Assembly: GCA_965205915.1 (NCBI GenBank)
Contig: OZ242191.1
Coordinates: 1,070,003 to 1,134,002 of the forward strand
Origin: Dehalococcoidia bacterium
GTDB lineage: Bacteria > Chloroflexota > Dehalococcoidia > UBA6926
DNA length: 64,000 nucleotides
Reading direction: 5' to 3'
Notes under the pieces: model-generated
Database searches by the model: none
Told to the model about the DNA's origin: nothing
Seen by the model: the letters and a program-made list of their open reading frames with translations, nothing else
Position numbers and translations under genes: made by a program
Part shown: piece after piece, positions 2,479 to 62,039 of the stretch
How positions within the stretch are numbered: the first letter of the stretch is position 1
Layout of the letters: each line of letters opens with the position of its first letter

Positions 2479-3480
2479 ATGGCAACGCCCTATCTGCTTG
2501 GAGTCGATATCGGCGGAACTCAAACTCGCGTCTCACTAGCCCGTACGCCGCGCGGCGCGATGCTGCGTTCCGTGTTTTCTTCCCCATCCCGAGCTGACCC
2601 CAGCATCCTGATCGACGGCATTGTCGATGCGGCATCAACCCTGGCCCGAGAGGCGGACGGCGAAATCATCGCCGGCGTCGTCGCAGCCGCCGGCACGGTC
2701 GATACAGCCACGGGCACGATTGTCGAATCCCCCAATCTACCCATGGTGAAAGACTTTGCTGTGGTGGAGGCCCTTTCGAGTCGGCTCGGCTGCCCCATCG
2801 AAGTCGACAACGATGCCACCGCTGCCGCGTACGCAGTGCATCGCATGGGCGTGGGGCGCGGGACGCGGGAGATGATCTATCTCACCATCAGCACGGGCAT
2901 CGGCGGCGGGATTGTGTCGGGCGGAAAACTGCTGAGGGGCATCGCGGGTGCTGCCGGAGAGTTTGGCCACATGACGATCGGCCTGTACCGCGGCATTCAA
3001 TGCGCGTGCGGGCTGTCAGGCTGCTGGGAGACGATGGCCTCCGGCACGGCGATTGCGCGAATGGCACGGATTCGCATCGAGGGGGGCGAGGACTCGAGCC
3101 TCGTCGAAATCATCCAGGCAAAGGGGCCTGAGAGCATCACTGCTCGCGATGTATTTGAGGCGGCGGAGCAGGACGATGCGCTGGGCCGTGCCGTGGTGGA
3201 TGAGGCGGGCTATGCGCTGGGCGTAGGGCTGGCAAATATCGTCAATATCTTCAATCCGGAACTGATTGTGTTGGGCGGGGGGCTGGCTCGCGGCCAGGAT
3301 GATTTTGTCATGCACGGCATCAGCGTCGCGCGGGAGCGGGCGTTCAAGCTCCAGAATCGCACCGTGCGCTATGAGGTTACGGAGCTCGGCGACGACAACG
3401 GGCTGCGCGGCGCGCTTTTGTTGGCGCGTGAACTGGCATCACGGATTCACCGCGAGGCCGGACGGGCGGCCCGGGAATAA
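2479..3480 (+). CDS. ROK-family sugar kinase (glucokinase/N-acetylglucosamine kinase-like)
   Basis: 333 aa. N-terminal 'LLGVDIGGTQTRV' ATP-binding motif and Cys-rich 'CACGLSGCWE' zinc motif of the ROK family. Confidence 0.8.
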   Translation: MATPYLLGVDIGGTQTRVSLARTPRGAMLRSVFSSPSRADPSILIDGIVDAASTLAREADGEIIAGVVAAAGTVDTATGTIVESPNLPMVKDFAVVEALSSRLGCPIEVDNDATAAAYAVHRMGVGRGTREMIYLTISTGIGGGIVSGGKLLRGIAGAAGEFGHMTIGLYRGIQCACGLSGCWETMASGTAIARMARIRIEGGEDSSLVEIIQAKGPESITARDVFEAAEQDDALGRAVVDEAGYALGVGLANIVNIFNPELIVLGGGLARGQDDFVMHGISVARERAFKLQNRTVRYEVTELGDDNGLRGALLLARELASRIHREAGRAARE

Positions 3481-11442: not shown

Positions 11443-11468
11443 GGATTCCCGCTTTCGCGGGAATGACG
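11443..11468. repeat. REP family A palindrome (GATTCCCGCTTTCGCGGGAATGACG), copy 1
   Basis: Hairpin CCCGC-TTTC-GCGGG. Copies at 28936..28960, 30981..31005, 52509..52533 and 62006..62030; partial copy at 30222..30241; diverged copy at 8770..8794. Confidence 0.8.
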
Positions 11469-17606: not shown

Positions 17607-18575
17607 CTAGGGGATGAGGAGGAGTTTGCCGGTGGTTTGGCGGGATTCGAGGCGGCGGTGGGCTTCGGCGGCGTCCTGTAGCGGAAATCGCTCCGAGATG
17701 CGGAGGGAGAGTTTGCCGTTGGCGATCCAGCCCAGAACATCGCTCGCGCGCCATTCGAGGTCTTCCCTGGTGACGGTGTAGTTGAAGAGGGAGGGTCTCG
17801 TCAGGTAGAGGGACTTGGCGTTGAGGGCGAGCGGAGCGATCGGCGGCACGACGCCGCTGGATTGGCCGTACATGACGAGGTAGCCGCGCAGGGCAAGGCT
17901 GGCCATCGAGCCCTCGTATGTCGTTGCGCCAACGGAGTCGTAGGCCACCTGGCAGCCCGCGCCGTCGGTGATGCGCATGACGGCTTCGTGGAAATCGTCC
18001 TGGGTGTAGAGGACGACGTGGTCTGCGCCGGCGTCTCGCGCAAGCTCCGCCTTTTCCTCCGTCGAGACGGTGGTGATGACCATCGCGCCGCGCATCTTGG
18101 CCATCTGGATGAGGAGCAGGCCGACGCCGCCCGCGCCCGCGTGGACAAGAGCCGTATCGTCGGGGCCGAGGGGATATGTGGAATGTGAGAGGTAGTGGGC
18201 GGTCATGCCCTGGAGCATGGCGGCCGCGCCCTGCTCTGCCGTGATGCCGTTCGGCAGCGTGATGAGGCGATCTGCCGGAACGACGACGCGCTCGGCGTAG
18301 GATTGGGACGCGCCGGTATAGGCGACGATATCGCCAACGGCGGGACTAGTGACGTCCGGCCCAACCTCCACGACGGTTCCCGCGCCCTCGCCGCCGAGGA
18401 TGGCGGGGAGTTGGCCGGTGCCGTAGAGGCCGGTGCGGCCATAGACGTCCATGTAGTTGATGCCGGATGCGGCGAGCTGGACGACGGCCTCGCCGGGGCC
18501 GGGGGTGGGATCGGCGACGTCCGCGTAGGTGAGAACCTCGGGGCCGCCGTATTGGGTGATCTGGACTGCTTTCAT
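17607..18575 (-). CDS. qor: NADPH:quinone oxidoreductase (zinc-type MDR superfamily)
   Basis: Start at MKAVQITQYGGPEVL. 'GAGGVGLLLIQMAK' Rossmann motif. Confidence 0.8.
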   Translation of the reverse strand: MKAVQITQYGGPEVLTYADVADPTPGPGEAVVQLAASGINYMDVYGRTGLYGTGQLPAILGGEGAGTVVEVGPDVTSPAVGDIVAYTGASQSYAERVVVPADRLITLPNGITAEQGAAAMLQGMTAHYLSHSTYPLGPDDTALVHAGAGGVGLLLIQMAKMRGAMVITTVSTEEKAELARDAGADHVVLYTQDDFHEAVMRITDGAGCQVAYDSVGATTYEGSMASLALRGYLVMYGQSSGVVPPIAPLALNAKSLYLTRPSLFNYTVTREDLEWRASDVLGWIANGKLSLRISERFPLQDAAEAHRRLESRQTTGKLLLIP

Positions 18576-18635
18576 GGGGTTGGTGCTCCTTGTGGTTGGG
18601 TTAGACGGTAAGCATCGCATAATTGGGGGTGGGGG

Positions 18636-20123
18636 TCATGGGGAGGACGCGGGATCAGTCACTTCGCAGTATGGCACGCTAGGGTTCCAATTGTAGCTCG
18701 GAAACTTCCGCCAGCTAGCAGGGGCACACCCTGTGAGCTGATTCTTTTCCAAGTAGAGTTCTTTCAAATTGGTCAAGTTACCCAATTCCGGGGGGATCTC
18801 CCCAGTAAGTTGATTATCTTCAAGTTCCAACCATTCAAGTTTGATCAAGTTGCCCAACTCTGCAGGTATTGGACCACTCAACTCGTTTTCGTGTAGGAAT
18901 AAATGGGTCAAGTTGATGAGGTTTCCCAATTCCCCTGGGATTGGACCGTTCAGCGCGTTTAGACCGAGCCATAGCCATCTCAGTTTGGTCAGAGTTCCCA
19001 GTTGCGCCGGTATCTGCCCCGTCAGTTGACCCCCGCCGAGCGACAACATTTCCAAGTTGACCAAGTTACCCAGTGCCGACGGAATCGAACCACTCACCCC
19101 TGTTCCTGAAATCCCGAGACTTTCCAAGTTGGTTAACTTTGCCAGTTCTGGCGGTATCCCACCCGTCAACAGATTTGAGCCGATGGACAGTTCTCTAAGG
19201 TTTGTCAAATTGCCCAGTTCCACAGGAATCTCACCGGTCAATTCGTTGACATAAAGAACCAATACTCTGAGGTTAGTCATGTTGCCCAGTTCCGACGGGA
19301 TTGGACCGGTCAGCTCATTGTGATTTAAGTACAGCGTTGTCAAGTTGGTCAGATCGCCTAATTCAGGTGGAATCTCTCCGCTCAATTCGTTGAAAGCCAG
19401 GGTTAGATATCTCAAGTTCTTGAGGGCACTTAGTTCTTCCGGAATCTTCCCGGACAGTTGGCCTTCAGCTAGATGCAATTCTGTGAGTTTAGTCAAGCGA
19501 CCCAATTCTGCGGGAATTTCTCCAGTTAGTTCGTTCTCACAGTGACCTATTCCAATCAGGCCGTTCAGACTGAGTAAACACGGCCTATCGCGGGGCGGCA
19601 TATCTCCCAGTCGCAACTTGGTTAGTTTCGACAATCCCGCCAGTTCAGGAGGGATCTCGCCCCGGAGCGTGTTTGATAGCAGGTTCAACTCCGTAACATG
19701 CCCCGCGTCGTTGGTGGTAACGCCATACCACTCTCCAAGAGGAGCATTGGTCAGCCAGTTACCTTTGAACCACCAGTTACGCCCATTCGTTTCGGCGTAG
19801 AGAATCTCCAGGATGATTCTCTCATCTATGGGGGTCAGCGTTGGTGTGGGGACGACTGTTGACGTTCCGGTGGGTGGCGGTGGGATTTGTGTGGGTGAGG
19901 GGGTTGCGGTGCGGGTGGGGGGCGGAGGTGTCGCCGTTGGAGAGGGGATTGGAGTTTCAGTCGGCGTTTCAGTGGGCGGAGGCGTGGGGGTTGGCAGTGG
20001 CCTGCCGCAGGCGATGAGGGCAATCGCAAAGGCGAACGCGATGGCAAGGAGCAGCGCCGTTCGTTGCGCGTTTCCACGCACGCTTTGACCCTTGATCGGT
20101 TGGTGTGCCCGAATCATGTCCAT
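18636..20123 (-). CDS. Plant-type LRR surface lipoprotein, array copy 1
   Basis: 495 aa. Lipobox 'LIACG', a Pro/Thr linker, an N-cap 'ERIILEILYAETNGRNW...NWLTNAPLGEWYGVT', about 13 LRRs 'LTGEIPxELGNLTNLxxLxL', and a C-cap 'TGCAPASWRKFPSYNWNPSVPYCEVTD'. Confidence 0.85.
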   Translation of the reverse strand: MDMIRAHQPIKGQSVRGNAQRTALLLAIAFAFAIALIACGRPLPTPTPPPTETPTETPIPSPTATPPPPTRTATPSPTQIPPPPTGTSTVVPTPTLTPIDERIILEILYAETNGRNWWFKGNWLTNAPLGEWYGVTTNDAGHVTELNLLSNTLRGEIPPELAGLSKLTKLRLGDMPPRDRPCLLSLNGLIGIGHCENELTGEIPAELGRLTKLTELHLAEGQLSGKIPEELSALKNLRYLTLAFNELSGEIPPELGDLTNLTTLYLNHNELTGPIPSELGNMTNLRVLVLYVNELTGEIPVELGNLTNLRELSIGSNLLTGGIPPELAKLTNLESLGISGTGVSGSIPSALGNLVNLEMLSLGGGQLTGQIPAQLGTLTKLRWLWLGLNALNGPIPGELGNLINLTHLFLHENELSGPIPAELGNLIKLEWLELEDNQLTGEIPPELGNLTNLKELYLEKNQLTGCAPASWRKFPSYNWNPSVPYCEVTDPASSP

Positions 20124-20214
20124 CTCGCAACGCTACTCAGTGGCGGTGTGGTGGTCAAGGATGGCGGGGGCGGCTTAGGCTGAGCGCCGCTGTCTCATTG
20201 TTGTTCAACGTTGC

Positions 20215-21651
20215 TCAGGGGGCGGGATCAGTCACTTCGCAGTATGGCACGCTAGGATGCCAATTACTAATTGGCGCCCTCCGCCAGCTAGCAGGAGCGC
20301 ACCCTGTGAGCAGATTGTTTCGGAGGTAAAGTTCTTTCAAATTGGTCAAGTTAACCAGTTCCGGGGGAATCTCGCCGCTCAATTGGTTCTTCTTGAGGTC
20401 GAGGTATTCCAAGCTGGTCAATTTGCCCAATTCAGTCGGGATTGGACCACTCAACTCATTCTCCGACAGGTTTAGACGCGTCAGGTTGACTAGGTTTCCC
20501 AATTCCTTTGGAATCTCGCCAGATATTTGGTTGTCTTGTAGCCTAAAGTCGTCGAGTCGGGTCAGAGTTGTCAGTTCCACAGGTATTTGGCCCGTCAGTT
20601 GGTTTTCGGATAGTAGGAGCGACTCCACGTTGGTCAAATTGCCCAGTTCCGATGGTATCTCTCCGGTCAACCGGTTGTAATCCAAATACAACCAGTTCAG
20701 GTTGGTCAGATTGCCTAGTTCCACCGGAATCTCTCCGCTCAACTCGTTGCTTCGGAGAACCAACCCTGTGAGATTGGTCAGGTTGCCCAGTTCCGATGGT
20801 ATCTCTCCGGTCAACTGGTTGTTTGCGAGAATCAACCATTTCAGGTTGGTCAGGTTGCCCAGTTCCGATGGTATCTCTCCGGTCAACTGGTTGTGATCCA
20901 GATACAACCAGTTCACGTTGGTCAAATTGCCCAGTTCCGATGGTATCCCTCCGGTCAACTGGTTGTTTGAGAGATACAACCAGTTCAGGTTGGTCAGGTT
21001 GCCCAGTTCCGATGGTATCTCTCCGGTCAACCGGTTATTTGCGAGAATCAACCATTTCAGGTTGGTCAGGTTGTCCAGTTCCGATGGTATCTCTCCGCTC
21101 AACTGGTTGTTTTCGAGAACCAACACTGTGAGATTGGTCAGGTTGCCCAGTTCCGATGGTATCTCTCCGGTCAACTGGTTGTCATTGAGATACAACTCCG
21201 TGAGATTGGTCAGGTTGCCCAACTCCGCCGGGATCTCGCCGTTCAGTTCATTTTCTGCCAAGAATAAAGTAGTGACGCGCCCCATGTCGTTGGTGGTAAC
21301 GCCATACCACTCTCCCAATGGGGCATCGGTCAACCAATTGTCGTTGCGTGTCCAGTTACCGCCGTCGGTCGACAAATAGAACGCCTCCAGAAAAGGCCTC
21401 TCGTCTATGGGAACCAACGTTGGAGTGGGGACGACTGTTGAGGTGACAGTCGGCGGCGGTGGTATACGTGTGGGCACGGCGGTCACTGTGGGCGGCGGTG
21501 TTGCTGTTGGCGTGGGGGTTGGGAGGGGCCTGCCGCAGGCGATGAGCGCAATCGAAAAGGCGAGCGCGATGACAAGGAGCAGCGCCACTCGTTGCGCGTT
21601 TCGACGCACGCTGTGACCTTTGATCGGTTCGTTTCTTCGAACTACATCCAT
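20215..21651 (-). CDS. Plant-type LRR surface lipoprotein, array copy 2
   Basis: 478 aa with the same architecture. The internal repeats are near-identical at the nucleotide level. Confidence 0.85.
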   Translation of the reverse strand: MDVVRRNEPIKGHSVRRNAQRVALLLVIALAFSIALIACGRPLPTPTPTATPPPTVTAVPTRIPPPPTVTSTVVPTPTLVPIDERPFLEAFYLSTDGGNWTRNDNWLTDAPLGEWYGVTTNDMGRVTTLFLAENELNGEIPAELGNLTNLTELYLNDNQLTGEIPSELGNLTNLTVLVLENNQLSGEIPSELDNLTNLKWLILANNRLTGEIPSELGNLTNLNWLYLSNNQLTGGIPSELGNLTNVNWLYLDHNQLTGEIPSELGNLTNLKWLILANNQLTGEIPSELGNLTNLTGLVLRSNELSGEIPVELGNLTNLNWLYLDYNRLTGEIPSELGNLTNVESLLLSENQLTGQIPVELTTLTRLDDFRLQDNQISGEIPKELGNLVNLTRLNLSENELSGPIPTELGKLTSLEYLDLKKNQLSGEIPPELVNLTNLKELYLRNNLLTGCAPASWRRAPISNWHPSVPYCEVTDPAP

Positions 21652-21660
21652 CCCGCAACG

Positions 21661-21866
21661 CTACTCAGCGGCGGTTTGTTGGTCAAGGATTGCGGGGAGT
21701 TGGCCGGTGCCGTAGAGGTCGGTGCGGCCGTACACGTCCATGTAGTTGATGCCGGATGCGGCGAGTTGGACGATGGCCTCGCCGGGGCCGGGGGCGGGAT
21801 CCTCGACGTCCGTGTAGGTGAGGACATCGGGCCCGCCGTATTGGGTTATTTGGACTGCTTTCATGG
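21661..21866 (-). pseudogene. Duplicated 5' fragment of qor (about the first 68 codons)
   Basis: The translation 'MKAVQITQYGGPDVLTYTDVEDPAPGPGEAIVQLAASGINYMDVYGRTDLYGTGQLPAILDQQ...' and the DNA are nearly identical to 18396..18575. Confidence 0.7.
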
Positions 21867-21967
21867 GGTTGTTGCTCCTTGGGTTGGTTGGTGGCGGGGC
21901 GGCACATTGCGCCGCTCGAAAGGCGGGATACGTCAGGTTGTAAGCATCGCATAATTGGGTGTGCGGG

Positions 21968-23755
21968 TCATGGGGCGTTCTCGCAGAATGGCAGATATAG
22001 CTTTTCGAAATCATTCGCCCTGATATTTCTCAACTCAGAGGGTATACAGCCCACAATTTGGTTTCCGCTAATTTCAAGCCACGTTAAGTTGACCAGGTCT
22101 GCGAGACGCGCTGGTATTTCTCCCGTGAACTCGTTATTGGAGAGGACCAACGATTTCAGACTGGTCAAGTTGCCCACATGTTCCGGTATTTCTCCGCTCA
22201 GCGCATTGCCTCGGAGAAACAGTGCCATGAGATTGGCCAGGTTACCCAATTCAGGTGGCAGCTCTCCGCTCAAGTCGTTGTTGGAAAGGATTAATGTTTC
22301 CAAATTGGTCAGGCGGGCAAGTTCCTTTGGTATAGCACCGCTCAAATCGTTGTGGCTAAAGGACGCCCAGGTCAAGCTGGTCAGGTTTCCTAGTTCTGGT
22401 GGTATCTCTCCGCTAAGGTCGTTCCCGCCAAGGTTCAACGACGTCAGGTTGGACAGCAAACCAAGTTCCGCCGGTATATTTCCATGAATTCGATTTCCCT
22501 CGATGCCGAGGGACTCCAGGTCATTCAGGTTTGCCAGTTGCTTCGGTATCTCTCCTGTCAGTTCGTTGAGTGAGAGACTCAGAAACACTAGATTGGCCAA
22601 CCTGTCAATTTCCGGGGAGATTTCCCCGGTCAATTGGTTCTCCGCGAGTGACAACAATTCGAGATTGGACAAGTTCAAGAGCTCATCGGGTATTTCGCCG
22701 CTCAACTGGTTTATGCTCAGATCCAGAGATCGCAAGTTGGTCATTTTCCCAAGTTCAGGCGGTATCTCACCACTCAATTGATTTGTGCTCAGATTCAATG
22801 ACTGCAAATTGGGCCAGTGCGCAAGTTCAGGCGGAATCTCACCGCTAAATTGATTGGAGCTCAGGTTCAACGATTTCAAGTTGGCCAGTCGAGTGAGTGC
22901 AACCGGTATTTCGCCACCCAATTGATTACTGTACAGCGCCAGTTCCTCTAGCTGCGTCAGCCTAGTCAGTTCCACCGGTATCGATCCTTCCAGGTTGTTA
23001 GCACCTAGCGACAGAATCGTCAAGCCGGTTAGTCTGCCAATGCTCGGCGGAATCTGTCCCTCAAAATCGTTGCCGTCCAAAAGCAGCACTCTCAAACCTG
23101 TCAGTTCGGTAAGTTCCATGGGAATGTCCCCGCTCAGCAGGTTTTGGGACAATATGAGTTCTTGCAGGTTTTCCAGGTTGGTGAATTCCCCTGGAATCTC
23201 ACCACTCAAATGGGTGAACCGGAGATACATATGAGTAAGGTTCGACAGTTGGCCCAATTCCGGTGGGATCTCTCCGCCCAAGTAGTTGTGCGAAAGCAGC
23301 AACTTTCTCAGGTTGGTTAAGCTGCCCATTTCCGGTGGGAGGGAACCAACTAACCAATTGTCACCAATGTCCACTTCTACGACGCGCCCCGTTTCGTCGG
23401 CGGTCACGCCATACCATTCTCCGAGAGGAGCGTCGGTTAGCCAGTTATCATTGCGTTTCCAGTTGTCTCCCTTGGTCGATAAGTAGAGCGCTTCAAGCAC
23501 CGGCCTATCTACAGACATAGGAATTGCCATCTGAGTGGGCGCAGGTATCGGCGTTGGCGTGGGTATCGCGGTCGATGTGGGCGCGGGTGTGGCGGTCATC
23601 GTGGGTGGGGGCGTTATCGTCGGCTCTTCATCGCCATCGCAAGCCGCAGGCAGAGCGAAGAGGCCTAGCGCGATGACAAGGAGCAGCGCCGCTCGTTGCG
23701 CGCTTCCACGCACACTGTGACCTTTGATCGGTTGGTGTGCCCGAACTATGTCCAT
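21968..23755 (-). CDS. Plant-type LRR surface lipoprotein, array copy 3
   Basis: 595 aa. Lipobox 'LPAAC', N-cap 'DRPVLEALYLSTKGDNWKRNDNWLTDAPLGEWYGVT', about 18 LRRs, and a C-cap 'GCIPSELRNIRANDFEKLYLPFC'. Confidence 0.85.
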   Translation of the reverse strand: MDIVRAHQPIKGHSVRGSAQRAALLLVIALGLFALPAACDGDEEPTITPPPTMTATPAPTSTAIPTPTPIPAPTQMAIPMSVDRPVLEALYLSTKGDNWKRNDNWLTDAPLGEWYGVTADETGRVVEVDIGDNWLVGSLPPEMGSLTNLRKLLLSHNYLGGEIPPELGQLSNLTHMYLRFTHLSGEIPGEFTNLENLQELILSQNLLSGDIPMELTELTGLRVLLLDGNDFEGQIPPSIGRLTGLTILSLGANNLEGSIPVELTRLTQLEELALYSNQLGGEIPVALTRLANLKSLNLSSNQFSGEIPPELAHWPNLQSLNLSTNQLSGEIPPELGKMTNLRSLDLSINQLSGEIPDELLNLSNLELLSLAENQLTGEISPEIDRLANLVFLSLSLNELTGEIPKQLANLNDLESLGIEGNRIHGNIPAELGLLSNLTSLNLGGNDLSGEIPPELGNLTSLTWASFSHNDLSGAIPKELARLTNLETLILSNNDLSGELPPELGNLANLMALFLRGNALSGEIPEHVGNLTSLKSLVLSNNEFTGEIPARLADLVNLTWLEISGNQIVGCIPSELRNIRANDFEKLYLPFCENAP

Positions 23756-23841: not shown

Positions 23842-26106
23842 CTACTCGGGATCGTGGAGGGCGCGGTAGACCTTTTCTGCTGTTATGGGGAGGTGGGTGA
23901 TGCGCGCGCCGGAGGCGGCGGCGACGGCGTTGGCGATGGCGGGCGAGGAGAGGACGATGGGGGTGTCGCCGATGCCGCGCACCTGGTAAGGGCCGTGGCC
24001 GGTTTCCGATTCGAGCACGACGACGTCCATGCGCGCGGCGTCGCGGTGGGTCTGGAGTTTGTATTCGGCGAATGAGGGGTTGGCGATGCTGCCGTCCTGC
24101 TCAACAAGCTCCTCGGACAGCGCGTGGCCGATGCCCTGCACGGAGCCGCCCTCGATCTGGCCGACGAATCCCATGGGGTTGAGGACGCGGCCCGTTTCAT
24201 GGGCAGCCGTGTATCGGAGCAACGTGACTTCGCCGGTCTCGGGATCGACCTCAACCTCGGCGATGTGTGTGCCAAATGAGATGTAGGGGCTGCTATCGCC
24301 CTCGTCGACCGTTACCTGTCCGCCGACGGGCTCCCCTGCCCTTGTGGCGATTTCTTCGATGGCGACGGCGGCGGCGCGGCCTTCGCCGGATACCTGGCCG
24401 TCCTTGAACTCGATGGACTCTTCCGTCCAGCCGTAGAACTCGGCGGCGAGTCGGCGCAGGTTGCGCTTGGCTTCCTGGCTGGCCTCATAGGCGGCGCGGC
24501 TCGATACTCGCGCGCCACGCTGACCGCCGATGCCCCAGTCACGCACACCGGCCTCAGTGGACCAGGTCTCGACAGTGACACGGTCGATGGGCAGGCCGAG
24601 TTCCTCGGCGACGATCTGCGCGAGGATGGTGCCGGTTCCGACGCCGGGATCATAGGTCATGGTGTTGACGATGACACGGCCATCGGGGTGGATGTTGACG
24701 GCGGCGGGGGCGTCAAAGCCGGTATCGGTCTGTCCGTGCAGGGCGATGCCGCGTCCCACGTTGGGCGGCGCAGGCGTGGCATAGTCGGCGGCGTCCGCGG
24801 CGGCGCGCAGGATTTCCTCTGCTCTCATACTCTGGTAGCCGTCCGCGCCGGGGGTGGCGACGGGGCTCCAGCCTCGGTCAGGGTGAGCATCGCCGGAAGA
24901 GTGAACGACGTTTCGCAATCGCAGTTCGTATGGATCGATGCCGAGCTTGTGGGCAAGGTCATCTATGATGGACTCAGATGCGAAGACGGATTGCATCAGG
25001 CCGGGGCCTCGGAAGTAGCCGCACGGGACGGTGTTTGTATAGACCTGGTTGGAGATGATGCGGACGTTGTCGACGCGGTACGGCTCCACCATGGACGTGC
25101 GCAAGAGGCCGCCATAGGCAGGAACGGGGGCATAGGCGGCATAGGCGCCGGTGGCGAAGTAGCCCTCCGCGTCCCATGCGGTGATCGTGCCGTCCTTTTT
25201 CGCGCCGACGCGCACTCGCACGACGGAGGGGTGGCGGGGGTTCATGGCGGTGAACTCTTCCGCGTAGTCCATGACCCACTTGACGGGGTGGCCGGTCTTC
25301 TTGGCGAGCAGGTAGCCAACGACGACGCCGGTTGGATCCATTTTGCCACCGAATGATCCTCCAAGGGGCGCGGGATGGATTATCACATCGTCGCGCGGGA
25401 GGCCCATGACGCGGGCCAAGTGGGGGCGGCGGCCGGTCGGCATCTGGCAGGACATCCATATATGGGCGCGTCCCTCATCGTCGATGTCGACAACGGCAGT
25501 GTGCGGCTCCAGGTAGACCTGATGGACGCGGGGGGTGCGGAACTCTCGCTCCACGACCACCTCGGCGTCACGGAACGCGGCATCGACATCGCCCCATTCG
25601 TGAACCATGCGGCCGTAGTTGTTGCTGAGTTGCTCAAGCTGCTCGACGCCGCGGTACTCGTTGTAGTCGGGGTGGATGAGGATGGCGTCGGGCTTGGAGG
25701 CTTCTTCGGGGTCAAGCAGCGCGGGCAGTTCTTCGTAGGTGACGTCGATGAGGCTGAGGGCTGCTTCGGCGATGTCATTATCGTCGGCGACGACGGCGGC
25801 GACCTTATCACCGATGAATCGGACGCGATCGGCGGAGGCGAGGATCGGTTCGTCCACATAGAGGTTGCCGGCGCGTTGGTCAGGAACATCATCGCCGGTG
25901 AGGACGCCGTGGACGCCGGGCAAGGCGAGGGCGCGAGAGGCATCGATGTTGAGGACGCGCGCGTGGGGGACGGGAGAGCGGAGGTATTTGAGCCGGAGGG
26001 CGTTGGGGGGGGCTATATCAAGGGCGTAGCGGGCGCGGCCAGTGACCTTGTCCGGCCCATCGACGGCGCGGACGGATTTGCCGATCACCTTGTATTCAGT
26101 AGTCAT
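23842..26106 (-). CDS. Xanthine dehydrogenase/aldehyde oxidase-family molybdopterin-binding subunit
   Basis: 754 aa. N-terminal 'KVTGRARYALDI' a/b hammerhead and molybdenum cofactor-binding motifs. No adjacent FAD or Fe-S subunit genes. Confidence 0.8.
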   Translation of the reverse strand: MTTEYKVIGKSVRAVDGPDKVTGRARYALDIAPPNALRLKYLRSPVPHARVLNIDASRALALPGVHGVLTGDDVPDQRAGNLYVDEPILASADRVRFIGDKVAAVVADDNDIAEAALSLIDVTYEELPALLDPEEASKPDAILIHPDYNEYRGVEQLEQLSNNYGRMVHEWGDVDAAFRDAEVVVEREFRTPRVHQVYLEPHTAVVDIDDEGRAHIWMSCQMPTGRRPHLARVMGLPRDDVIIHPAPLGGSFGGKMDPTGVVVGYLLAKKTGHPVKWVMDYAEEFTAMNPRHPSVVRVRVGAKKDGTITAWDAEGYFATGAYAAYAPVPAYGGLLRTSMVEPYRVDNVRIISNQVYTNTVPCGYFRGPGLMQSVFASESIIDDLAHKLGIDPYELRLRNVVHSSGDAHPDRGWSPVATPGADGYQSMRAEEILRAAADAADYATPAPPNVGRGIALHGQTDTGFDAPAAVNIHPDGRVIVNTMTYDPGVGTGTILAQIVAEELGLPIDRVTVETWSTEAGVRDWGIGGQRGARVSSRAAYEASQEAKRNLRRLAAEFYGWTEESIEFKDGQVSGEGRAAAVAIEEIATRAGEPVGGQVTVDEGDSSPYISFGTHIAEVEVDPETGEVTLLRYTAAHETGRVLNPMGFVGQIEGGSVQGIGHALSEELVEQDGSIANPSFAEYKLQTHRDAARMDVVVLESETGHGPYQVRGIGDTPIVLSSPAIANAVAAASGARITHLPITAEKVYRALHDPE

Positions 26107-26183
26107 GCCGTGCCCCCCCTGTAACGCGGCGTGGCGTGGCCGCGAGAGTTTGTCTAGTTTGAGTCTAGCGCACGGGGGCTGAA

Positions 26184-26561
26184 TCAGCCCATGTGAACGT
26201 GCTGGATGACGATATCCAAGCCTGATGCTCGGGAAAGCCGAGCGTCGACAGTCAGCAGGGGGAGGTTCCGAGCACGGGCGGCAGCAACATAAAGGGCGTC
26301 ATAGGCGCTGATGTTTTGGTAGTGCTCCCACGCCAACGGCGCAAGGATGCGATGAGATATGCGTTCAATGGGCCACAAGAGCAAAGCGCTAATGGGCAGC
26401 CGCGCTCTCGCCTCTTCCAGCTTGCCGCCCAGCACTTGTCTCCGCAACACCGACAAAACTTCCGCGTCAATCAATTCAGGCGCAGCCAACGACGCGTTGT
26501 CGATTGTGCCCGCCAAACGGCCTCTGCCGTTGACTTCCTTGGGGAATTCTTGCTGGTTCAT
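26184..26561 (-). pseudogene. N-terminally truncated vapC paralog (PIN domain lacking the first catalytic Asp)
   Basis: The last ~100 aa are nearly identical to the C-terminus of the intact VapC at 28071..28472. The N-terminus is replaced by unrelated sequence. Confidence 0.5.
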
Positions 26562-26659
26562 GGATCTCTTGACATTCGGCGATACGGCCCTGATGATCCC
26601 CTAACTTTACCATCGGCAAGGAGGCCACGACCCGTAGGGGGACGAGAGAGTCTAATTTT

Positions 26660-27787
26660 TCACTCTGAATCGAGATACGGAAGAAGGTCGGCCGGTTCCA
26701 TAGCTCTGCGTTCTACCTCTACCCGTAACTCCAATTCGCACTCTATTGGCTTCGGTAAATTGTCACCGCGAAGCTCCCCTTGCAACACTACAGTGCAAGG
26801 CTCAGTAGATCCAACAAACAGCTCATTGTCCGTCCATGCATAGTCACTCGGGCGGACATTTCCGAAGTCGATTTCAATCTCCCAGCGGTCAGTGAGTTCC
26901 CTGACCTTAATGTCTATGTCATCGGGACTACTTGCGGCCAGCCCATGTATATTGCCGAAGGGTGTTCTTGATGGGGGATTACTATACCAGTCTTTGATGA
27001 TTAGCCCTTCAGTCTTGGTGGCGTGACCGACAAAGCGCACTTGTCGAGCTGGTACATCGCTTGTGTTTTCGAGTCGCAGGCCAACCGAATTGACGAGTGC
27101 CCTCTCGGCAGCGTACAAGATCACTTCCCGCGGATAATTGTTGTTGATTAGGGGGTCTATGCTCAAAAAGGAGCGGCGCTGTTGCGGGAATATGCTATCA
27201 GCGAGTCGCGGTTCAAGGATTTGTGACCGAACGGCGTGGGGCGATGGCAGGACTTCCCTTTTTCTGTTGTCGGCCCACTGGAGCGAGAGATCAGGTGTGA
27301 GTTCGGCGGCAACCTCGGCGCCCATTTTCGCTATCTCATCAGGGTTTGCAACTCTTGTTGAGCTGCCGCCTCTTATGAAGACGTTGTTCGCACCCAATTT
27401 GCCAAACTTTTGCTTTAGGTATGTGGGGCGATGCTGTTGCGGGATTTCAATGACCCCGATAGAGACGCCCTCTATCGGAACCGCGTAGTAGGAGAAATCA
27501 ACATGGCGCTGCGTCTTACCGTTGACGAACTGTTGAAGGTTAGAATCGTCCAAGTGATCCTGAACGCCGACCACCTCACTGCGCCCACCCTTGGCCTCCT
27601 TTACTCCAATAAGGATGTACGCCGTTGTTCGTCGCCATGAATTGGCGAAGGCCAGTATGTCCTTCAGTAGCTCGGCCTTCGCACCGATATCCGCATTAGC
27701 AAAGGGATACTGTTCTGACTTGAAATCTAGGGCCGTCCCCTCAGGTTCATGCAGCAGAGACTCCAGAAACGATAAATCAATAGGCAT
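26660..27787 (-). CDS. AlbA_2/Schlafen-like (PF04326) domain protein with an unknown C-terminal domain; candidate defense gene
   Basis: 375 aa in a low-GC stretch. N-terminal 'EGTALDFKSEQY...ILAFANSWRRTTAYILIGVKEAKGG..VVGV' matches the AlbA_2 signature. Confidence 0.6.
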   Translation of the reverse strand: MPIDLSFLESLLHEPEGTALDFKSEQYPFANADIGAKAELLKDILAFANSWRRTTAYILIGVKEAKGGRSEVVGVQDHLDDSNLQQFVNGKTQRHVDFSYYAVPIEGVSIGVIEIPQQHRPTYLKQKFGKLGANNVFIRGGSSTRVANPDEIAKMGAEVAAELTPDLSLQWADNRKREVLPSPHAVRSQILEPRLADSIFPQQRRSFLSIDPLINNNYPREVILYAAERALVNSVGLRLENTSDVPARQVRFVGHATKTEGLIIKDWYSNPPSRTPFGNIHGLAASSPDDIDIKVRELTDRWEIEIDFGNVRPSDYAWTDNELFVGSTEPCTVVLQGELRGDNLPKPIECELELRVEVERRAMEPADLLPYLDSE

Positions 27788-27804
27788 CTACCTGACCTCC
27801 CCCT

Positions 27805-28074
27805 TTACCGATCCTGTGCTTGAACCTGTTCGGCGACGTCATTACCCGCCGTCAATTCCAATATCGCGGCGATGCGGCGGGCGGTGTTGTAGAAGTGTTG
27901 GACTTCATCGAGGTTGAGGGGGCGGGTTAGGATTTTGTGCTCGCGGTAGGAGAGCCATTTCTTGAGGACTTGATAGCCGCCTAGTTTGTAGTTCCAGACG
28001 ATGTTCCTGCCATGGCTCCTCGGCCATTCCTTTGAGTTCGGCTGTCCCAAGCCACACGGTAATAGCATCATCAT
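27805..28074 (-). pseudogene. C-terminal remnant resembling type IIG RM / BREX PglX-class N6-adenine methyltransferases
   Basis: 'KLGGYQVLKKWLSYREHKILTRPLNLDEVQHFYNTARRIAAILEL' recalls the conserved C-terminal block of Eco57I/PglX-family enzymes. No methyltransferase body is present upstream. Confidence 0.4.
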
Positions 28075-28472
28075 CCCATGTGAACGTGCTGCACGACGAT
28101 GCCGAGGCCGGATGCTCTTGATAGACGGCCATCGGCGGTTATTAGGGGGAGGTCCCGAGCGCGGGCGGCAGCAACGTAAAAGGCGTCATAGGCGCTGATG
28201 TTTTGGTAGTGCTCCCAGGCCAACGGCGCAAGGATTCGATGAGATATGCGTTCAATGGGCCACAAGAGCAGAACGCCAATAATTAGCCGCGCTCTTGCCT
28301 CTTCCAGCCTGCCGCCCAGCACTTCTCCCCGAAGCGTTGACAAAACTTCCGCGTCGATCAACTCGGGCGCAACCAACGACGCGTTGTCGATTATGTCGGC
28401 CACCGTTAAGCCGACGGGCGTTTTCAGGAGATACTCGACCGCCACGGACGCATCAATGACATAGTCGGTCAC
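28071..28472 (-). CDS. vapC: PIN-domain toxin VapC
   Basis: GTG start 'VTDYVIDASVAVEYLL' with the first PIN Asp. The GTG overlaps the antitoxin stop (GTGA). Confidence 0.7.
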   Translation of the reverse strand: MTDYVIDASVAVEYLLKTPVGLTVADIIDNASLVAPELIDAEVLSTLRGEVLGGRLEEARARLIIGVLLLWPIERISHRILAPLAWEHYQNISAYDAFYVAAARARDLPLITADGRLSRASGLGIVVQHVHMG

Positions 28473-28717
28473 TGCGGTTTCGCGCCGAACAACTCTGCGT
28501 CGCGCTCGGCGCGCGCTTCCGCAATCAACGTTGCCGCGTCGACGCCCAGATCCGTCGTTGGGAGTTGAGCCCAACGCTCCTGCCACTCCCGGCGCTTCAG
28601 CTCGCGCTCGACGGCGGTGAGGACGATTGCGCTCATGCTGGAGTTGTTCTCCTGCGCAAGGCGGCGAAGGCGTTTGTGGAGGTCGTCCGGTATGTTTCTT
28701 ACTTGAAGATTAGGCAT
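28469..28717 (-). CDS. vapB: Ribbon-helix-helix (CopG/FitA-like) antitoxin VapB
   Basis: 'MPNLQVRNIPDDLHKRLRRLAQENNSSMSAIV' is an RHH fold signature. Coupled to vapC. Confidence 0.65.
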   Translation of the reverse strand: MPNLQVRNIPDDLHKRLRRLAQENNSSMSAIVLTAVERELKRREWQERWAQLPTTDLGVDAATLIAEARAERDAELFGAKPQ

Positions 28718-28812
28718 GTAGTGAAGATAGCATGAAGTCTTCATGAAGCCAAGATGATTGGTGCATGACGCGGGTTTGGCGGGGATGAGTGCGACGGCGC
28801 AATGGAGGCTTT

Positions 28813-28960
28813 GGATTCTTCGCTGCGCTCAGAATGACATGTTGAGGGGCGGGAACGGCATGCGGACTGAGTCAGGAGGACATGCCGATTGTGATGGGTT
28901 GGCGTTTTTAGGGTTGGTTGGGGAATGGAGGTTAAGATTCCCGCGTTCGCGGGAATGACG
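28813..28960. repeat. Composite REP element (family B ... conserved spacer ... family A)
   Basis: B at 28813..28839 and A at 28936..28960. The spacer 'GGTTGGCGTT..GGGTTGGTTGGGGAATGGAG' is shared with the composite at 52430..52533. Confidence 0.75.
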
Positions 28961-29125
28961 GAGTGGGGGCGGGAATGACGGTGGGGGCGGGGGAGCGCGG
29001 CGGCTTGCGGGGGGGCGGGCAAAAGGGGCAACATGGGCGGGCGGTGGGCCATCGTCGGCGATGGTCGTCGCGGGCGGGTTAGCTGCATGAGCGGCGGGAG
29101 AGCAAATTTAGTTTGGGGGGATTTC

Positions 29126-29890
29126 ATGGCTGATTACGAGGGCATGATTGCGGAGATCACGACGGTGAAGGGTCACAACGGCGATGCCATTTCGGCGTAT
29201 TTCGCTCGGCCGCTTGGGCCGGGGCCGTTTCCTGGGGTCGTTTTGATCCACCACGCGCCCGGGTGGGATGAGTGGTATCGGGAGGCGACGCGCAAGTTCG
29301 CGCATCACGGCTATTTGGCCATCTCGCCGAATCTGTATGAGCGCGAGGGTAGCGGCAGCGCGGATGACGTTGCTGCTGCGGTGAGGGCAGCCGGCGGTGT
29401 GGCGGATGAACAGGCCGTGGGCGACATCGTGGGATCGATGCAGTTCCTCCGGGCGCTGCCGCAGACGAACGGCAAGGTTGGGGTGTTCGGCACATGCTCA
29501 GGCGGACGACAGGCCTACCTGGCAGGATGCGCGGGCGGATTCAATCCGGATGCGCGGTTCGATGCCGTCGTGAACTGCTGGGGCGGACGCGTGGTGATGA
29601 CCGACGATGAGAAGTCGGAAAAGATGCCCGTCGCGCCAATCGATTACACGCCGAACCTGAGCGCGCCGATCCTCGGTCTGTTCGGCAACGACGACATGAA
29701 TCCGACGCCGGCGCACGTCAACGCGCTTGAAGAGGCGCTGAAGGAGCACGGGAAGGATTACGAGTTCCATCGCTATGACGGCGCGGGACATGGTTTCTTC
29801 TACCACGATCGGCCGAATTACCGCATCGAGCAGGCGCTGGACGGGTGGGAGAAGCTCTTCCACTTCTTCGAGCAGCATCTCTCTGCCTGA
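29126..29890 (+). CDS. Dienelactone hydrolase-family protein
   Basis: Start at MADYEG. 'GTCSGGRQA' nucleophile Cys-type DLH motif and 'YDGAGHGF'. Confidence 0.7.
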   Translation: MADYEGMIAEITTVKGHNGDAISAYFARPLGPGPFPGVVLIHHAPGWDEWYREATRKFAHHGYLAISPNLYEREGSGSADDVAAAVRAAGGVADEQAVGDIVGSMQFLRALPQTNGKVGVFGTCSGGRQAYLAGCAGGFNPDARFDAVVNCWGGRVVMTDDEKSEKMPVAPIDYTPNLSAPILGLFGNDDMNPTPAHVNALEEALKEHGKDYEFHRYDGAGHGFFYHDRPNYRIEQALDGWEKLFHFFEQHLSA

Positions 29891-30980: not shown

Positions 30981-31005
30981 GATTCCCGCCTTCGCGGGAA
31001 TGACG
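30981..31005. repeat. REP family A copy, followed by a short tandem 'GGGTGACAGGCCCGATGGC' x2
   Basis: GATTCCCGCCTTCGCGGGAATGACG, then the half-repeat GGGAATGACGG, then a 19-bp tandem duplication at 31051..31088. Confidence 0.75.
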
Positions 31006-52429: not shown

Positions 52430-52533
52430 GGATTCCTCGCTGCGCTCGGAATGACAGGCAAATGGATAGGGTTGGCGTTACGGGGTTTGGTTGGGAAATG
52501 GAGATCAAGATTCCCGCTTTCGCGGGAATGACG
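52430..52533. repeat. Composite REP element (B at 52430..52456, A at 52509..52533)
   Basis: Same B-spacer-A organisation as 28813..28960. Confidence 0.75.
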
Positions 52534-61922: not shown

Positions 61923-62039
61923 GTATACGCCGTGACGTTGGTTGGCGAGCGAAACAGAAAGAGTCGTGGGCGGCTATTCTAGCCGCCCACGACAGGCTTG
62001 CTCTGGATTCCCGCTTTCGCGGGAATGACGGGCGGTGAA

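Follow-up and report, generated by a model that had tools for sequence, protein, structure and literature searches.

How did a gene for a Schlafen-like protein come to lie between an intact and a truncated copy of the toxin gene vapC, beside the stub of a restriction-modification (RM) gene, and which of these genes is still in working order? The question is raised by positions 26184 to 28717 of a 64,000-nt stretch of a Dehalococcoidia bacterium genome (assembly GCA_965205915.1, contig OZ242191.1, positions 1,070,003 to 1,134,002 of the forward strand), which is called the window below. Comparison with related genomes showed a variable defence hotspot, of which this region is one state and which reaches from just past the stop codon of the toxin-antitoxin pair vapBC to just upstream of a molybdopterin xanthine-dehydrogenase-family (XDH-like) gene. 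The Schlafen gene remains whole, is subject to purifying selection and has no part in the degradation seen next to it. The history of the hotspot and the mode of action of the Schlafen protein that are set out below together form the explanation that we consider likely.

States of the site between vapBC and the XDH-like gene

Eleven syntenic loci from related metagenome genomes were found through the closest Schlafen homologue and through relatives of vapB and vapC. All eleven are bounded by the same dienelactone-hydrolase gene and the same XDH-like gene, and the following states of the site were observed:

L091: empty site, with vapBC, 80 bp and the XDH-like gene
L094, and L090 and L092 with the RM gene split into several open reading frames (ORFs): vapBC, RM gene (N6_Mtase/Type_ISP_C, 1,014-1,140 aa), XDH-like gene
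L087 and L088: vapBC, RM gene, complete second vapBC, XDH-like gene
L001: vapBC, RM gene (1,148 aa), Schlafen gene (374 aa), 125-aa PIN protein, XDH-like gene
L085 (partial contig): vapBC, then the RM gene over its first ~1 kb, L001-like
Window and L086: vapBC, RM stub, Schlafen gene, 125-aa PIN protein, XDH-like gene
L089: vapBC, the same RM stub, an unrelated 330-aa ORF, XDH-like gene
L093 (partial contig): vapBC, a 90-aa ORF at the usual RM start, an FRG/TPR protein and a short match to the RM 3' end

An uninterrupted vapBC was sought among the relatives and is present in L091, where it is followed by the XDH-like gene. In L087 and L088, the direct repeat covers the entire vapBC (742-767 bp, 87-88% identity). 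Two pieces of alternative cargo are candidate defence genes: the 330-aa ORF of L089 (821-1813), which has hydrophobic stretches and no family match, and the gene of the 534-aa FRG/TPR protein of L093 (7729-9333). The former was also considered as a divergent Schlafen and was rejected as such (hhalign probability 2%, no PADLOC match).

In the window, the gene order on the minus strand is vapB, intact vapC, an 89-codon ORF, a 375-codon ORF, a 98-nt spacer, a 125-codon ORF and a 754-codon gene. The features are:

28469..28717, minus strand: vapB1, ribbon-helix-helix (RHH) antitoxin, 82 aa as called in relatives (the longest ORF begins at 28744)
28071..28472, minus strand: vapC1, intact PIN toxin, 133 aa, with a GTG start at 28472 (longer ORF frame 28071..28586)
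28070..28402: direct repeat copy 1, covering the 3' 111 codons of vapC1, aligned to copy 2
27805..28074, minus strand: 89-codon ORF, whose ATG overlaps the vapC1 stop
26660..27787, minus strand: Schlafen/AlbA_2 gene, 375 aa, with a PF04326 match
26562..26659, minus strand: 98-nt spacer between the Schlafen gene and the truncated vapC, the right part of a ~1.3-kb Schlafen cassette
26184..26561, minus strand: vapC', truncated second vapC, 125 aa, with a PIN match from profile position 22
26183..26515: direct repeat copy 2, within vapC', aligned to copy 1
26159..26179, minus strand: conserved GCGCTAGACTCAA motif upstream of the XDH-like gene, where all haplotypes rejoin; right border of the variable hotspot
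23842..26106, minus strand: 754-codon gene, with a molybdopterin xanthine-dehydrogenase-family orthologue in relatives

A first-pass annotation of this DNA had placed the ORFs, the low guanine-cytosine (GC) content, the direct repeat and the RHH gene at these positions, and all were confirmed. The GC content is 0.50-0.55 over 26500..28000 against 0.61-0.67 in the adjoining genes. The two repeat copies align over 333 bp at 85.3% identity with no gaps (E 1e-108), well past chance, and are true homologues, not unrelated paralogues. The alignments of L089, L090, L092, L093 and L094 end at 26179, five bases past the vapC' stop. The general idea of a horizontally acquired defence segment adjoining vapBC is supported by these comparisons.

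The first vapBC is still a normal toxin-antitoxin pair, in agreement with the first-pass description of an intact toxin gene coupled to an RHH antitoxin. VapB1 matches FitA-like_RHH (PF22513, E 3e-8, Pfam), and the exact 82-aa product is recorded in one relative. Its stop codon, as read in the sequence, overlaps the GTG start of vapC1 by 4 nt (GTGA), and VapC1 covers positions 1-118 of 120 of the PIN profile (E 8e-12, Pfam). Among the 692 homologues of VapC1, nearly all are 133 aa long, and the exact match is P0270. The segment 28071..28717 has the RHH antitoxin, the full-length PIN toxin and the stop/start overlap by which a VapBC type II toxin-antitoxin pair is recognised.

Several further observations concern the borders of the locus. 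On the left, one copy of a repetitive extragenic palindrome (REP)-like sequence, ATTCCCGCnTTCGCGGGAATGAC, separates the hydrolase gene from vapB. This palindrome lies in ~67-nt repeats and occurs in the window in five exact copies against none expected, all on the plus strand (11445-11467, 28937-28959, 30982-31004, 52510-52532 and 62007-62029); L001 also has copies. On the right, beyond the XDH-like gene, 18000-23755 holds low-GC (~0.50) paralogous minus-strand ORFs of 495, 478 and 595 aa, which cross-match at many offsets, suggesting internal repeats, and whose versions in relatives have no Pfam match. They are 64-75% identical to L001 compared with >90% for neighbouring genes, and this is possibly a second hypervariable region, perhaps one of surface proteins. 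In L088 only, an HNH/Endonuclease_7 gene (3073-3474) stands between the PMSR and DUF6295 genes and may be a small homing-type insertion. An Rfam scan of 25500..29500 gave a single sub-threshold chance match and nothing else, and NCBIfam gave no match for the Schlafen protein, the stub or either vapC product.

The RM gene and its deletion

Two remnants of the RM gene were located between vapC1 and the Schlafen gene:

28000..28013, minus strand: RM 5' remnant ATGGCAGGAACATC, ATG plus 4 codons, aligning to L001 6538..6551
27805..27999, minus strand: RM 3' remnant GTCTGGAACTAC..., the last 64 codons plus stop, a Type_ISP_C tail, aligning to L001 9791..9984 at ~89%

The stub was identified from its colinear alignment to the RM gene of L001 and not from its profile scores, which are weak: the 89-aa ORF matches Type_ISP_C (PF18135, Pfam) at E 1.7e-4 over positions 295-319 of 342, below the gathering score, and REase_MTase_IIG of PADLOC at E 2e-5. 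In nucleotides, it is ~89% identical to the 3' end of the intact 1,148-aa type IIG-like gene that occupies the same position in L001, and its tail peptide IVWNYKLGGYQVLKKWLSYREHKILTRPLNLDEVQHF agrees with the C-terminus of that protein. The junction lies at 28000/27999 (+/- 1), where codon 5 is joined to the last 64 codons and ~3.24 kb (L001 6552..9790) is gone. The native RM start codon does not share the reading frame of the tail. An ATG further upstream opens the 89-codon ORF, which runs through 24 non-RM codons (the vapC-RM spacer and the out-of-frame RM 5' end) and then enters the RM frame. In L086 and L089, the counterparts of this ORF measure 75 and 56 aa, respectively; it is thus not conserved, and it is probably a chimeric by-product of the deletion rather than a functional gene. 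The first-pass annotation had taken this ORF for the tail of a lost type IIG or BREX PglX-like methyltransferase (MTase). The tail of a lost type IIG-like RM gene it is, with the exception of its first 24 residues, which are not RM sequence, and PglX is the poorer match.

The intact orthologues in L001, L087 and L088 carry the Pfam domains N6_Mtase, Eco57I and Type_ISP_C. An intact orthologue matches REase_MTase_IIG from position 9 at E 6e-89 and the structure 7lo5 at E 3e-36, as well as LlaGI and LlaBIII. As in type IIG/IIL enzymes (DrdV, PDB 7LO5; MmeI class), the L001 protein matches the N-terminal, methyltransferase and specificity regions of the PADLOC IIG profile, and 7lo5, 5ffj and 4xqk are matched over its residues 331-933. 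The stub also corresponds to the C-terminal tail of Type ISP enzymes (LlaGI, LlaBIII), whose helicase-like motor was not detected in the intact relatives. Judged by these relatives, the lost gene encoded a type IIG/IIL single-polypeptide enzyme (DrdV/LlaGI-like) of 1,112-1,148 aa. The reading of the stub as BREX PglX was rejected, since the intact orthologue matches PglX at E 1e-6 in the MTase motif region only compared with E 6e-89 for type IIG; no BREX genes were called at the syntenic loci L001 and L086-L088. Such enzymes combine a nuclease, a gamma-class N6-adenine MTase and specificity in one polypeptide, whereas all that is left in the window is 5 codons of the N-terminus and 64 of the C-terminus, mutually out of frame. 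The host genome should thereby have lost both the restriction and the methylation activity of this enzyme.

The junction is identical in L086 and L089. L086 is 100% identical to the window over ~108 bases around it, and L089 differs from the window by one base in the 78 nt after the vapC1 stop. Despite the identical junction, L086 and L089 carry different downstream cargo. The RM gene was lost in a single deletion event, and the deleted allele now adjoins different cassettes. The gradual decay of an RM gene, which had been proposed from the window, gives way to this one ~3.24-kb deletion. A microhomology-mediated deletion was considered and not adopted: with L087/L088 as reference, the junction shares only 1-2 bases.

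The surroundings of the intact RM gene are marked by a ~40-bp motif (GCRCTAGACTCAA..ACGCACA..GACGCGGC), which is present in a single copy at the empty site and at 26159-26179 in the window. Wherever the RM gene is present, the motif flanks it on both sides (L092, 7403-7450 and 10920-10990; likewise L090, L094, L001, L087 and L088), and it sits ~50 nt upstream of the RM start codon and of the XDH start codon. Possible roles are those of a promoter or 5' leader that was duplicated and of an attachment or repeat site of the RM cassette. GCRCTAGACTCAA precedes the RM start in all intact haplotypes and is replaced in the three RM-deleted ones, where the left copy is lost.

The truncated vapC, the Schlafen alleles and the history of the site

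The second vapC lacks the N-terminal catalytic Asp, as the first reading of the window had noted. Its PIN match covers profile positions 22-118 only, so that the beta1 strand and the first catalytic Asp are absent (Pfam), and the protein alignment shows the loss of ~16 N-terminal codons, including the VIDAS Asp, with four new codons, MNQQ, at the front as a fortuitous start. VapC toxins are recognised by an entire PIN fold bearing four acidic catalytic residues and by a partner antitoxin; having an incomplete fold and no antitoxin gene ahead, 26184..26561 does not qualify as one. The 125-aa form was found in only 4 clusters (90% identity) among 518 homologues, all of this lineage, and the exact product is P0393.

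The origin of vapC' became apparent from the relatives. The 3' 333 bp of L001 vapC' are 98.5% identical to the full vapC2 of L088, L001 vapC1 and L088 vapC1 are 97.3% identical, and the site patterns of these four sequences are orthologous at 38 sites and concerted at none. Because of the 98.5% identity and the 38 vs 0 site patterns, vapC' is identified as what is left of a formerly complete second vapBC. When the Schlafen haplotypes are compared with the RM plus vapBC2 haplotypes (and with the RM-only ones), homology stops at 27858, 17 codons before the RM stop, and resumes at 26515. Together with the break in the protein after ~codon 16, this shows that a ~1.3-kb cassette took the place of the RM tail, of vapB2 and of the beginning of vapC2. 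The vapC copies of the window are mosaic: their 5' sites are orthologous, while in the last ~45 bp the two copies of one genome agree (the window has HVHMG, L001 has LVRMA), a pattern that indicates conversion or allele exchange between the copies.

The first-pass annotation had offered another origin, in which a small islet composed of the RM gene and the AlbA_2 gene entered vapC and thereby duplicated part of it (333 bp), after which the RM gene decayed. Compared with the empty site of L091, the window does have 1,887 extra bases flanked by a 333-bp repeat, the truncated vapC copy is contiguous with the XDH side, and the RM gene is truly reduced to a stub. The haplotype series nevertheless largely refutes this origin and leaves it very unlikely: a complete vapB2-vapC2 stands at that place in L087 and L088, within the 742-767-bp repeat; L001 vapC' is nearly the same sequence as vapC2 of L088; there are RM-only haplotypes without any second vapC; and the RM gene was lost by one clean deletion and not by decay. 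Of the degraded islet that had been described, the reduction of the RM gene to a stub stands, and the intact Schlafen gene does not belong to it.

A different possibility is that vapC' is a working gene, whose product could, for instance, be a catalytically crippled PIN subunit with VapB1 or VapC1 as binding partner or with a modulating effect on the Schlafen protein. The ORF has kept its 125 codons, its ATG and its MNQQ start in four clusters of 79-100% identity, and its ratio of nonsynonymous to synonymous substitution rates (dN/dS), 0.13-0.30 at dS 0.36-0.43, resembles the 0.10-0.31 of intact vapC1. However, exchange between the vapC copies is evident and can alone give vapC' a pattern of selection like that of the functional copy, the form occurs in no more than four clusters of a narrow lineage, the beta1 strand and the first catalytic Asp are missing, and L089 has lost vapC' without replacement. 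We regard a working VapC' as doubtful, a minority alternative; most likely, vapC' is a remnant homogenised by the functional copy.

The Schlafen gene stands apart from this picture of loss. Compared with L001 or L086, the window has flanking genes of 92-100% nucleotide identity, whereas identity in the Schlafen gene drops to 50-60% at residues ~130-280 (~27400..26950) and returns to ~80% at the 3' end. Its dS is 1.0-1.8, compared with 0.18-0.24 for the XDH-like gene. The dN/dS of the Schlafen gene is 0.15-0.22 overall and 0.11-0.33 across its three parts; between the window and L086, both without an intact RM gene, it is 0.17. From the dS of 1.0-1.8 against ~0.2 in the flanking gene, it follows that the Schlafen alleles long predate their host genomes. 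Kept functional, they appear to have passed between genomes by recombination, whose break points lie in the RM tail and in vapC', and not to have evolved rapidly in place. The pattern fits a sensor under long-term diversifying pressure.

The Schlafen gene is also independent of the RM gene. The hotspot has RM without Schlafen and Schlafen without RM. In 63 Schlafen homologues, the gene directly upstream encodes N6_Mtase in 8 cases, HsdR in 6 and HsdS in 2, many others being unrelated, and the downstream neighbours were heterogeneous in Pfam scans. When the L001 RM protein and vapC were compared by tblastn with 80 genome loci that carry Schlafen homologues, almost nothing was found. A conserved two-gene system of Schlafen with this RM family was rejected on this basis, leaving a loose association with various RM types. 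Schlafen and RM are independent modules of common defence neighbourhoods, and prokaryotic Schlafens generally share such neighbourhoods (PMC13056530). In one Dehalococcoidia genome (OZ244718.1; L004 10001-11116, and L006), a 58%-identical Schlafen-Ig homologue lies alone between the genes of hydantoinase A and B; no RM, toxin-antitoxin or mobility gene was among the genes called within 10 kb of it.

A history of the site may be proposed from these data. It would start from an empty vapBC-XDH site, such as that still present in L091. A type IIG/IIL RM gene would then have arrived, with a complete second vapBC following it in some genomes, although the order of these two is inferred. Next, a ~1.3-kb Schlafen cassette (~27857..26550) would have replaced the last 17 RM codons, vapB2 and ~16 vapC2 codons, leaving the 125-codon vapC'; the breakpoints and the orthology on which this step is built were observed. 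In the lineage of the window, a single ~3.24-kb internal deletion, with <=1-2 bp of microhomology, took the RM body, as is seen in the junction that three haplotypes share. Finally, old Schlafen alleles would have been swapped by recombination, as the dS values suggest. A bolder version would make the vapBC repeats a homology scaffold for docking, excising and exchanging defence cassettes, with VapC' retained as an impaired PIN subunit that tunes VapBC1 or the Schlafen protein. We think this quite improbable; if true, the locus would be a toxin-antitoxin-anchored, self-stabilising defence-swapping site.

The Schlafen protein and its proposed mode of action

The assignment of the 375-aa protein to the AlbA_2/Schlafen proteins of defence type was borne out by Pfam, with SLFN_AlbA_2 (PF04326) matched at residues 16-147 (E 4.7e-16, 59.8 bits against a cut-off of 25.3). 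The motif E16-GTAL-D21-F-K23 (Ex4DxK) was read in the sequence at 27719..27742. In an alignment of 30 homologues, the N-terminal 160 residues are strongly conserved, with E16 and K23 invariant and D21 kept in >=90%. The AlphaFold2 model (predicted local distance difference test score 88) combines an N-terminal alpha/beta domain with an all-beta region at residues 167-361. Foldseek related the N-terminus to the AlbA_2 structures 3lmm and 2kyy, and the C-terminus to the Ig-like domains of the integrin alphaX, alphaV and alphaIIb ectodomains (probability 1.00), as well as to other beta-sandwiches. The first-pass annotation had left the C-terminal 250 aa without a family. Pfam and NCBIfam indeed assign none there, but on the model residues 161-375 are predicted to form an Ig-like beta-sandwich, as in the pSlfn5 architecture, and by analogy with it they are a putative phage sensor.

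Homologues are numerous: 1,205 word-index matches, and 2,403 clusters at 50% identity, mostly full-length, of which 734 have E <=1e-30. The top genome matches come from metagenome-assembled genomes of Dehalococcoidia and other Chloroflexota. The exact 375-aa product is not recorded in the assembly collection, which does include the products of vapC and vapC' from the same 2.45-Mb contig (P0270, P0393); a different start may have been chosen for the Schlafen gene in the assembly record, or the gene may have been overlooked.

By its modelled architecture, the protein would fall into the pSlfn5 class, RorSlfn5 having been compared by its published description. In pSlfn5 proteins, a Schlafen RNase with an Ex4(E/D)xK motif (Perez Taboada et al., Nat Microbiol 2026, PMC13056530) is joined to a C-terminal Ig-like beta-sandwich that resembles integrin ectodomains and acts as phage sensor (PMC13056530). 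RorSlfn5 is activated by the T5 tail assembly chaperone and then cuts tRNA anticodon arms, and its dead mutant is E15A/D20A (PMC13056530). Its hexamer of 261 kDa (PMC13056530) gives a monomer of ~43 kDa. The protein of the window has the same N-terminal PF04326 domain, catalytic residues at nearly equal positions (E16/D21/K23 against E15/D20 in RorSlfn5) and a similar size (375 aa against the ~43-kDa subunit). Common to both are also the C-terminal Ig-like sandwich with integrin ectodomains as the nearest structures, the conserved nuclease with a variable C-terminus, and a single gene amid defence genes. On the other hand, RorSlfn5 comes from an enterobacterium and the present protein, known from sequence and model, from a Chloroflexota-like genome, and the T5-type tail assembly chaperone cannot be assumed to be its trigger. 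A further difference is that alleles varying by 31-40% in protein are swapped here between genomes ~95% identical in their flanks. The PADLOC candidate PDC-S50, for which the literature consulted describes no function, is of similar length (profile length 387) and matches the N-terminal 140 residues (E 5e-16), leaving the C-terminal 230 residues unmatched.

By homology to RorSlfn5 (PMC13056530), the Schlafen protein would act as a stand-alone anti-phage effector. Its variable Ig-like C-terminus would bind a phage protein and thereby switch on the N-terminal Schlafen RNase (E16, D21, K23), which would cleave tRNA anticodon arms and lower the phage yield.

The protein could instead be a nucleic-acid-binding or regulatory one, or an RM accessory that is now a functionless passenger, and no immune RNase. 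Plasmid records call AlbA_2 proteins no more than 'ATP-binding protein', 30% of prokaryotic Schlafen genes have no defence genes nearby and most of those tested gave no phenotype (PMC13056530), and in L001 the Schlafen gene begins 16 nt past the RM stop, in an operon-like manner. Yet the catalytic Ex4DxK motif is intact and conserved, purifying selection persists in the RM-deleted genomes, the homologues adjoin different RM types or no RM at all, and a defence by a single gene with this same architecture has been proven by experiment (PMC13056530). We consider a role other than that of an immune RNase unlikely.

Some points weigh against the explanation preferred here, in which an anti-phage Schlafen RNase was carried into a hotspot of this history. 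Besides the share of prokaryotic Schlafen genes that lie away from defence genes, two of the three pSlfn5 homologues that were assayed failed to protect against the phages used (PMC13056530). The match to PDC-S50 is limited to the N-terminal domain, and the modelled likeness to RorSlfn5 is one of architecture rather than of directly compared sequences. The RNase activity, the phage trigger and the defence role of the protein and its close relatives are predictions by analogy. A promoter and terminator scan gave nothing above the shuffled expectation and no promoter-like site on the coding strand. The proposed order of events in the hotspot is an argument from parsimony, and the vapC copies give no clean tree because their site patterns are mosaic.

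All parts of the locus are of known kinds, and the dynamics of the hotspot are a tidy example rather than a new kind of system. Current concepts are unchanged, and the value of the locus lies in a clean annotation and in a candidate set of natural sensor variants. The Schlafen-Ig (pSlfn5) family is extended to uncultured Chloroflexota-type genomes. At one site, a natural series of at least seven haplotypes leads from the empty state through the intact RM gene to the deleted RM gene with varied Schlafen alleles or other cargo, and an RM enzyme can go in one step while the neighbouring gene stays. The part of the Schlafen protein proposed as the sensor is the very part that is replaced between near-identical genomes, which fits the sensor and arms-race model of pSlfn5.

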